64,000 nucleotides of DNA, taken from NCBI RefSeq assembly GCF_030013595.1, contig NZ_CP122768.1. One strand, given 5' to 3'. This document shows positions 7,138 through 9,174 of this stretch, piece after piece (position 1 is the stretch's first letter; each line of letters starts with the position of its first letter). The notes under the pieces are model-generated. The model had not been told where the DNA came from. It made no database searches and worked only from the letters and a program-made list of their open reading frames with translations. Source of the stretch: Escherichia coli (lineage in GTDB: Bacteria; Pseudomonadota; Gammaproteobacteria; Enterobacterales; Enterobacteriaceae). The translations under genes and the position numbers were made by a program.

Positions 7138-8184
7138 TCAGAAGCGGGTATCTACCGCAGAGGCGAGTTTTTCGACCAGGCGTTCGGTATCTTCCCAGCC
7201 CAGACACGGGTCGGTAATCGATTGACCGTAAGTGAGCGGCTGACCGCCGACGATTTTTTGCGTTCCTTCGCGCAGGAAACTTTCCGCCATAATTCCAGCA
7301 ATCGCCGTAGAGCCATTGCGGATTTGCTGACAAATATCCTCACAAACTTCTAACTGGCGACGGTGCTGCTTCTGGCAGTTACCGTGGCTGAAATCCACCA
7401 CCAGATGTTCAGGTAAATCAAACTCGTGCAGCGTATCGCAGGCTGCGGCGATATCATCGGCATGGTAATTCGGTTTTTTGCCGCCACGCATAATAATGTG
7501 GCCATACGGGTTGCCGCTGGTCTGATAGATGGTCATCTGACCATTTTTGTCTGGCGAGAGGAACATATGGCTGGCGCGGGCTGCGCGGATAGCATCTACG
7601 GCAATCCGCGTGTTGCCATCGGTACCATTTTTAAAACCTACCGGACAGGAGAGTGCCGAAGCCATTTCACGGTGGATCTGACTTTCGGTAGTACGTGCGC
7701 CAATCGCGCCCCAACTGATTAAATCAGCAATAAACTGACCGGTCACCATATCGAGGAACTCAGTCGCGGTAGGAACACCCAGCTCATTTACCTGTAAAAG
7801 TAATTTGCGCGCCAGCTCCAGACCGTGATTTACCCGATAGCTGCCGTTTAAATCCGGATCGGAGATTAGCCCTTTCCAGCCGACAACAGTTCGTGGTTTT
7901 TCAAAATAGGTGCGCATTACGATTTCCAGCCGTGACTGGTACTGGTTGCGCAGCGACTGCAGACGGGTGGCGTACTCCATTGCAGCGGTGAGATCGTGGA
8001 TCGAGCAGGGGCCAATAATGACCAACAGTCGCTTATCTTCACCATTCAGTATTTTTTCAATTCTGCGGCGGGAGTCGGTGACATGGGTGGCGACGCCAGG
8101 CGTTACGGGATACCGTAGCGCGAGTTCGGCGGGCGTTACCAGGCTCTCAATACGCGCAGTACGGAGTTCGTCAGTTCTGTTCAT
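7138..8184 (-). CDS. aroH: DAHP synthase, Trp-sensitive
   Basis: 348-aa ORF recognised as AroH. Confidence 0.95.
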   Translation of the reverse strand: MNRTDELRTARIESLVTPAELALRYPVTPGVATHVTDSRRRIEKILNGEDKRLLVIIGPCSIHDLTAAMEYATRLQSLRNQYQSRLEIVMRTYFEKPRTVVGWKGLISDPDLNGSYRVNHGLELARKLLLQVNELGVPTATEFLDMVTGQFIADLISWGAIGARTTESQIHREMASALSCPVGFKNGTDGNTRIAVDAIRAARASHMFLSPDKNGQMTIYQTSGNPYGHIIMRGGKKPNYHADDIAAACDTLHEFDLPEHLVVDFSHGNCQKQHRRQLEVCEDICQQIRNGSTAIAGIMAESFLREGTQKIVGGQPLTYGQSITDPCLGWEDTERLVEKLASAVDTRF

Positions 8185-8329
8185 TACAAGTCTCAGAAAT
8201 TTGTTGCTTCTACGGCAGGACTACCGGGAAGTGATGCGCATCACGATAAACCAATCGCAGCTGATTTCAAGTGCGAGGTGTGTCACACCTCGCCGGGTGG
8301 TTAGCATGATAACAAAAAAATAAGCTAAT

Positions 8330-8347
8330 GCACTAGTTCTCTAGTAC
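8330..8347 (-). promoter_or_regulatory. TrpR-operator-like palindrome upstream of aroH, overlapping the ppsR stop codon
   Basis: gcaCTAGttctCTAGtac, two CTAG half-sites in trp-operator arrangement. Confidence 0.5.
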
Positions 8348-9174
8348 ATTCGACGGCTAAGGCCCATGATATCGAGGATCTTGGTGGCAATCTCTTCTAC
8401 CGAATAATTGGTACTGTTAATCCACGGGATCTGATTTTTACGGTACAACGCTTCCACTTCCGCGACTTCCATCCTGCACTGACGAAGCGAGGCATAGCGA
8501 CTGTTCTCCCGACGTTCCTCGCGAATCGCCGCCAGTCGTTCCGGGTCGATAGTCAGGCCGAACAATTTATGCTGAAGCGGTTTGAGCGACGCGGGTAGCA
8601 CCAGATTATCCATATCGTCGGCAATAAAGGGGTAGTTTGCCGCGCGGATACCAAATTGCATTGCCAGATACAGACTGGTGGGGGTTTTACCACAGCGAGA
8701 AACGCCGAGCAGGATCACCTGAGCCTGGTCCAGATTGCGCAACGAAATGCCATCATCGTGGGCGAGGGTGTAATCAATCGCCGCAATGCGCGCATCATAT
8801 TTATTGAGATTATTAGGGTTAAGGCCATGGGTACGATGAGCAATCGGCGTGGGATCCAGTTTCATCTCTTGTTGTAGCGGGGCAACCAGTGCCTGAACGA
8901 TATCCTGGCAAAAGCCTTCACTTTGCAAGATGATGGCGCGAATTTCCGGCAACACGATGGAGTAGAAGACCAGCGGGCGCACACCTGTCTGGTGATAAAT
9001 TGCGTCAATCTGATCCTTCACTGCCCGTGCACGGCTCTCATTTTCGACAAACGGCAGCGTAATGCTGCTGATAGTGACGGGAAATTGTGACATTACTGCG
9101 TGTCCTAATACCTCCGCAGTTATTGCCGTACCATCAGAAATATAAAAAACGTGGCGATCAACAGCATTATCCAT
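8341..9174 (-). CDS. ppsR: PEP synthetase regulatory protein (kinase/pyrophosphorylase)
   Basis: 277-aa ORF with P-loop GVSRCGKT; divergent from ppsA. Confidence 0.9.

Follow-up and report, generated by a model that had tools for sequence, protein, structure and literature searches.

A probable TrpR operator of aroH in Escherichia coli that overlaps the ppsR stop codon and the -35 region of the upstream of two aroH promoters

The aroH operator has been a model TrpR target since about 1980, and the operator sequences of trpR, mtr and aroL are more degenerate than that of aroH. The published aroH operator, which we take to be ATGTACTAGAGAACTAGTGCAT and to have been described as overlapping the -35 region, agrees with the DNA studied here. 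To our knowledge, none of the other TrpR operators (trpR, mtr, aroL) overlaps the stop of a gene lying upstream. Work on the K-12 aroH operator is reportedly that of Zurawski et al. in 1981 (J Mol Biol 145:47) and of Gunsalus and Yanofsky in 1980. Negative regulation of aroH by TrpR, which the preliminary description of this locus had invoked, is stated in PMC5343134 and described there as limited to a few closely related Enterobacteriales; according to the supplement of that paper, TrpR targets aroH in 6 genomes, all from one taxonomic group, and the trpR, mtr and aroL operators are there assigned to the same repressor, with functions in aromatic amino acid or tryptophan metabolism. Binding of TrpR to the aroH operator is attributed to Kumamoto 1987 and Klig 1988, as cited in PMC7518442. 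The gene is served by tandem promoters according to the title of Hudson, Rellos and Davidson 1991 (Gene 102:87), and a CRISPR-activation study targets annotated promoters aroHp1 and aroHp2, with guide positions given relative to each start (bioRxiv 10.1101/2022.07.14.500123). In ETEC H10407, a CRP ChIP-seq peak is assigned to aroH, for which exactly the motifs AGTGATGCGCATCACG and TGCGAGGTGTGTCACA are listed (PMC4287617). The aroH operator, the two-promoter layout and the binding of CRP at aroH are already known; a search of full-text literature for the operator string or for the phrase "aroH promoter" gave no match.

The window, by which we mean the whole 64-kb stretch of E. coli DNA that was analysed, carries the same object as E. 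coli K-12, with 18 identical base pairs, the same flanking genes and the same place over the -35 region of the upstream promoter. The core of the palindrome occupies 8330..8347, exactly where the preliminary description had quoted it, and reads GCACTAGTTCTCTAGTAC on the plus strand and GTACTAGAGAACTAGTGC on the minus, gene-sense strand; in K-12 MG1655 the identical 18-mer is found at 1788272-1788289. The regulated gene, aroH, is encoded on the minus strand at 7138..8184 and is recognized as the Trp-sensitive DAHP synthase by NF009396 (701.7 bits versus a cut-off of 463), and AroH belongs to tryptophan and aromatic amino acid metabolism, as is the case for TrpR targets. Upstream of it, at 8341..9174 and also on the minus strand, lies ppsR, encoding the PEP synthetase regulatory kinase/phosphorylase (NF049928, 430 bits), while ppsA is on the plus strand and divergent. 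The two genes flanking the palindrome are therefore tandem and co-directional, and the description of ppsR as convergently ending was wrong; the K-12 annotation has the same layout, with ppsR at 1787445-1788278 and aroH at 1788435-1789481, both on the plus strand. A 401-bp query around the operator matches 5,422 of 5,426 complete E. coli genomes, with the annotation ppsR followed by aroH. The centre of the operator is located 154 bp from the aroH ATG (8184), in line with the distance of about 150 bp given earlier. As a separate observation, published Term-seq tables contain a strong 3′ end of an RNA that runs antisense to ppsR, at K-12 position 1787648 on the minus strand, which corresponds to approximately 8971-8981 on the plus strand of the window (PMC7815308).

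On the minus strand, from 8347 to 8330, the site is composed of GTACTAG-AGAA-CTAGTGC, that is, two inverted CTAG-centred halves (GnACTAG ... CTAGTnC) whose CTAG tetramers are 8 bp apart. It shares the CTAG-N4-CTAG arrangement with the trpEDCBA operator of K-12, GAACTAGTTAACTAGTAC, and 14 of 18 bases are common to the two; the aroH site departs from the symmetric form in its central 4 bp, which are AGAA instead of TTAA, and in one flank, which is GTGC instead of GTAC. The two operators also differ in their placement, since the trp operator covers the -10 region, just downstream of a TTGACA -35 element, and the aroH site covers the -35 region. The core is embedded in an extended 24-bp palindrome at 8327..8350, AATGTACTAG-AGAA-CTAGTGCATT, whose arms are complementary at 9 of 10 positions. 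Avoidance of CTAG is a known property of E. coli, and the window contains 12 copies of this tetramer versus 122 expected from its dinucleotide content, an approximately 10-fold depletion; because CTAG is so scarce, TrpR half-sites stand out. Two of the 12 copies are in the operator, where they form the only pair with this 8-bp offset in 64 kb, and an arithmetic estimate gives a probability of about 0.002 that 12 copies scattered at random over that length would produce a pair at exactly this offset. The symmetric trp-operator consensus GTACTAGTTAACTAGTAC is matched at 8330-8347 with 3 mismatches, the sole match in the window at up to 3 mismatches, and none of 100 dinucleotide shuffles contained any match.

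The window allele of the 43-bp stretch 8318-8360 is rare, being found with at least 99% identity in 10 of 5,420 E. coli genomes; among the few strains aligned, the allelic differences fall at synonymous ppsR sites (AGC/AGT and CGT/CGC) and at bases just 3′ of the operator, and variation within the operator is confined to its central spacer (GAGA or GAAA). Between the strain of the window and K-12, the differences are limited to synonymous sites of ppsR and a few bases of the leader. A degenerate third CTAG-like element, TTAG, is located at 8325..8328 on the minus strand, 8 bp past the second CTAG. This weak element could seat a second, tandem TrpR dimer whose protection would reach towards the -10 region; it differs among E. 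coli strains (TTAG, TTAA or TTGG), which makes its importance doubtful.

The position of the operator relative to the two aroH promoters was derived from published coordinates. For aroHp1, the guides of the CRISPR-activation study have their PAM-proximal ends at 8372 (-70) and 8392 (-91), from which an approximate transcription start at 8301..8302 on the minus strand can be back-calculated (Table S3, bioRxiv 10.1101/2022.07.14.500123). Both aroHp2 guides end at 8316 (-81 and -80), giving a start at 8235 or 8236, and an aroH reporter study used a 51-nt leader beginning with ATCACTT, which corresponds to A8235 (PMC11878033). Two starts are present in the window, near 8301 and 8235, as for the tandem-promoter aroH announced in the title of Hudson, Rellos and Davidson 1991. 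A reading with a single promoter was rejected: the 51-nt untranslated region conflicted with an operator at the -35 region, a conflict resolved by the annotation of aroHp1 and aroHp2 together with the 1991 title. The Mendoza-Vargas 2009 start-site data hold no aroH entry, and among the entries listed in the Cappable-seq tables none matches the aroH start coordinates. With these starts, the operator spans approximately -46 to -29 of aroHp1 and -112 to -95 of aroHp2, and it lies over the -35 region of aroHp1 when that start is taken from the published guide coordinates. The aroHp1 promoter has an extended -10 element, TGtTATCAT, at 8306..8314 on the minus strand, beginning 18 bp after the operator, and a poor -35 hexamer (TAGTGC or AGTGCA). 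With the start at 8301, TATCAT would be followed by just 4 nt, an unusually short interval; either the mapped start or the -10 assignment may therefore be a few bases out. The core of aroHp2, TTGAAA-16-TATCGT at 8243..8270 on the minus strand, is a better match to the consensus than aroHp1; this second promoter, which the operator does not overlap, had been missed in the preliminary description.

The identity of the 18-mer with K-12, its similarity to the trp operator, its conservation, its location before a gene that scores as AroH and its position over the aroHp1 -35 region all argue that the palindrome is the classical aroH TrpR operator, on which a bound TrpR dimer covers the -35 region of aroHp1, and we assign this reading a probability of about 0.93. 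In the most likely mechanism, the Trp-bound TrpR dimer would recognize the two CTAG-centred half-sites at 8330-8347 and, when tryptophan is plentiful, would cover the -35 region and keep RNA polymerase off aroHp1. The geometry of the site points to this occlusion, which would act at aroHp1 only, and to aroHp1 as the TrpR-controlled promoter. Located about 100 bp downstream of the operator, aroHp2 is too distant for occlusion and has no CTAG nearby, and it would therefore be expected to escape TrpR and to supply TrpR-independent, basal aroH expression. TrpR bound at the operator might instead act on aroHp2, through looping or as a roadblock at about -103, so that the operator would have no promoter of its own. 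This arrangement would place the regulation at the more conserved promoter, the one closer to consensus, whose start at 8235 was chosen for the recent aroH reporter (PMC11878033), but looping would call for a second operator near aroHp2 and the only CTAGs of the region are those in the operator itself. In addition, the position of the operator varies together with that of a -10 hexamer located 17-18 bp past it, aroHp1 is annotated with a start of its own near 8301, and species that have aroHp2 without an operator are common; we consider control of aroHp2 from the operator very unlikely.

The locus was compared with 80 AroH loci from species-representative genomes. Across the Enterobacterales ppsR is directly upstream of aroH throughout, and it is absent from that position in Vibrio, Photobacterium and Aeromonas. 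An operator of the form GnACTrr-N4-CTAGTnn is present in 25 sequences, namely the window and 24 loci, all from Enterobacteriaceae-level genera (Escherichia, Citrobacter, Enterobacter, Lelliottia, Pseudocitrobacter, Pluralibacter, Cedecea, Shimwellia, Siccibacter, Phytobacter and Mangrovibacter), and 20 of the 25 have a TAnnnT -10 hexamer 17-18 bp past it. Among the 80 loci the operator is confined to the Enterobacteriaceae, in agreement with the 6 genomes of one group reported in PMC5343134, and none was found in the Yersinia, Serratia, Rahnella, Erwinia, Pantoea, Proteus, Providencia, Photorhabdus and Xenorhabdus loci of this set. A free-standing, weaker TrpR-like site is located about 125 bp before the ATG in Hafnia and Edwardsiella. 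In most operator-bearing genera a TAA stop codon of ppsR gives a left half with CTAA, which is paired with a perfect right half, CTAGTAC; in E. coli the TAG stop gives a full CTAG on the left and the right flank is imperfect (GTGC). In two Budvicia loci (L033 and L038), the sequence at the ppsR stop is GTACTAGTTCAAGAGTAT, whose left half and centre are perfect and whose right half is degraded, with 4 mismatches; it may represent a TrpR site in decay or one that has diverged.

The comparison also bears on whether the palindrome could be a chance product of the terminal codons of ppsR, with no regulatory role. A left half of the form GTACTAG does arise from a Met-Tyr-stop ending; it is found without a right half in Rouxiella (L028), and in two Erwinia loci (L035 and L080) ppsR ends in the related GTACTGA, with a TGA stop and likewise no right half. 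The right half, CTAGT(A/G)C, is however intergenic and kept across genera at fixed spacing, no match of such quality is expected by chance, and control of aroH by TrpR is an established finding (PMC5343134). A chance origin has a negligible probability, and the conservation of the site in effect refutes it.

A further possibility is that the palindrome serves mainly or additionally as the intrinsic terminator of ppsR, with the hairpin AAUGUACUAG-AGAA-CUAGUGCAUU followed by AGCUUAUUUUUUU stopping ppsR transcripts before aroH. A simple terminator scan flags 8350-8327 and its tail, the RNA hairpin of 8327-8350 folds at -12.1 kcal/mol (z -3.2), and it is situated exactly at the ppsR stop. Against this reading, G-C pairs account for only 3 of the 10 pairs of the stem, and the U7 run begins 6 nt past it, whereas a terminator U-tract would follow the stem directly; the T-run doubles as the aroHp1 spacer and is restricted to Escherichia and Citrobacter youngae, while some 24 species retain the palindrome. 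Among the Term-seq entries listed in PMC7815308 there is no sense-strand 3′ end for ppsR or for the aroH leader. In two loci the operator and the ppsR stop have been separated. In Enterobacter sp. ENT03 (L013), a 24-bp insertion lies between the ppsR stop and the operator (L013 approximately 1315-1365), and the locus keeps a relic GTACTAA at the ppsR stop plus a full new operator, GAACTAGTAAGCTAGTAC; in a soil metagenome-assembled genome (L032), the insertion is about 209 bp (L032 approximately 1135-1360). In both, the operator is still about 150 bp from the aroH ATG and retains its -10 partner, so the palindrome stays with aroH and away from the ppsR stop, and the operator belongs to aroH and not to ppsR. 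Termination cannot be the main reason for the palindrome, and the terminator reading is on the whole improbable, with a modest extra role in ending E. coli ppsR transcripts being possible.

Under the operator reading, the end of ppsR would be subject to two constraints. The gene ends ...CGA ATG TAC TAG, its last codons (Met-Tyr-stop) occupying 8341..8349 on the minus strand, and the upstream half-site GTACTAG at 8341-8347 takes in the final G of Met, all of the Tyr codon and the stop codon, the latter (TAG, 8343..8341) falling within the left CTAG. The overlap of the operator with the last codons and stop of ppsR thus holds as first described. The further proposal that the aroH promoter is embedded in the 3′ end of ppsR holds only for this 7-bp half-site and for any upstream polymerase contacts, as the -35 and -10 elements and both starts are intergenic. 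The evidence indicates that the last 7 bases of ppsR (atG TAC TAG) serve both as coding and stop sequence and as operator. Where the operator abuts ppsR (21 loci), the last Tyr codon is TAC without exception (21 of 21), and all stops but one are TAA or TAG (20 of 21). The remaining 30 loci have a Tyr ending in 13 cases (7 with TAC and 6 with TAT) and a Phe ending in 17, with TGA as the most frequent stop (14 of 30); TAT is the codon in the loci with a TrpR-like site detached from the stop (L032, Hafnia and Edwardsiella). This pattern fits selection by the operator on synonymous and stop positions of ppsR, as the codon counts suggest; the counts carry no phylogenetic correction and the operator-bearing species form one clade, so the 21 of 21 are not phylogenetically independent and are suggestive rather than a formal test. 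The locus also offers a small, clean case in which a regulatory site appears to dictate the codon and the stop codon that its neighbouring gene uses.

A more specific scenario is that the operator was built on the Met-Tyr-stop end of ppsR (atG TAC TAr) as a ready-made half-site, the choice of Tyr and stop codons being fixed by TrpR binding and not by translation. The conserved ...RRMY-stop ending of ppsR provides half an operator for free; we regard this scenario as speculative and rather doubtful. In a stronger version, the RNA of the palindrome would end ppsR transcripts, and repressor occupancy and tryptophan status would also set the read-through into aroH; if true, this would link the regulator of PEP synthase to aromatic biosynthesis. 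The overlap also advises caution in TAG recoding of E. coli genomes, as the ppsR TAG of both the window and K-12 is inside an operator CTAG: replacement by TAA gives the CTAA half-site that most related genera already carry, and replacement by TGA would damage the operator.

The aroHp2 promoter and its leader form a block (window 8184-8270 on the minus strand; loci L001-L050, L078 and L080) that is conserved far more widely than the operator, in nearly all of the Enterobacterales and also in genera without an operator. Its elements are TTGAAA-16-TATCGT, a palindrome (GTGATGCGCATCAC, 8245..8232) and a hairpin in the leader (CUUC/CGG...CCG/GAAG). Of 53 Enterobacterales sequences, 44 carry the promoter pattern TTGAnn-16-TAnnGT, with a constant spacing of about 57 nt to the ATG, and the palindrome that follows has the form GTGAT-N4-ATCAC, with arms that are invariant across the Enterobacterales. 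The block would appear to be the ancestral promoter and leader of aroH. The evidence indicates that the operator and aroHp1 are a lineage-restricted pair added upstream of an older promoter, which is a modest addition to what is known; for annotation, its value is that gene orientation is fixed and that the TrpR-controlled promoter is told apart from the older, widely conserved one.

The CRP motif AGTGATGCGCATCACG of the published ChIP-seq listing (PMC4287617) is located at 8230..8245, over the -10 element and start of aroHp2, and matches 8 of 10 core positions of TGTGA-N6-TCACA. CRP-like matches this good are no more frequent in the window than chance predicts, with 21 found versus 27.5 expected, and the motif is credible as a CRP site only because of its conserved arms and the ChIP-seq data. 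It spans approximately -10 to +6 of aroHp2, with its centre at about -3, and this placement, some 3 bp upstream of the start, suggests that CRP bound there would be expected to repress aroHp2. A search of 8100-8450 against Rfam with E-values up to 1 gave no match, so this interval contains no known leader RNA or riboswitch.

The second listed CRP motif, TGCGAGGTGTGTCACA (8272..8287, PMC4287617), is inside a perfect hairpin with 10-bp arms, GCGAGGTGTG-A-CACACCTCGC, at 8272-8292 on the minus strand, which folds at -15.6 kcal/mol (z -4.0) and corresponds to approximately +10 to +30 of the aroHp1 transcript. In Enterobacter and Lelliottia a different, G+C-rich hairpin is found in its place, and the other genera have none. 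The hairpin was rejected as a general feature of the locus, the structure being conserved only in E. coli and in Enterobacter and Lelliottia. Candidate roles for it are 5′ stabilization or pausing, or it may have arisen as a by-product of the CRP site.
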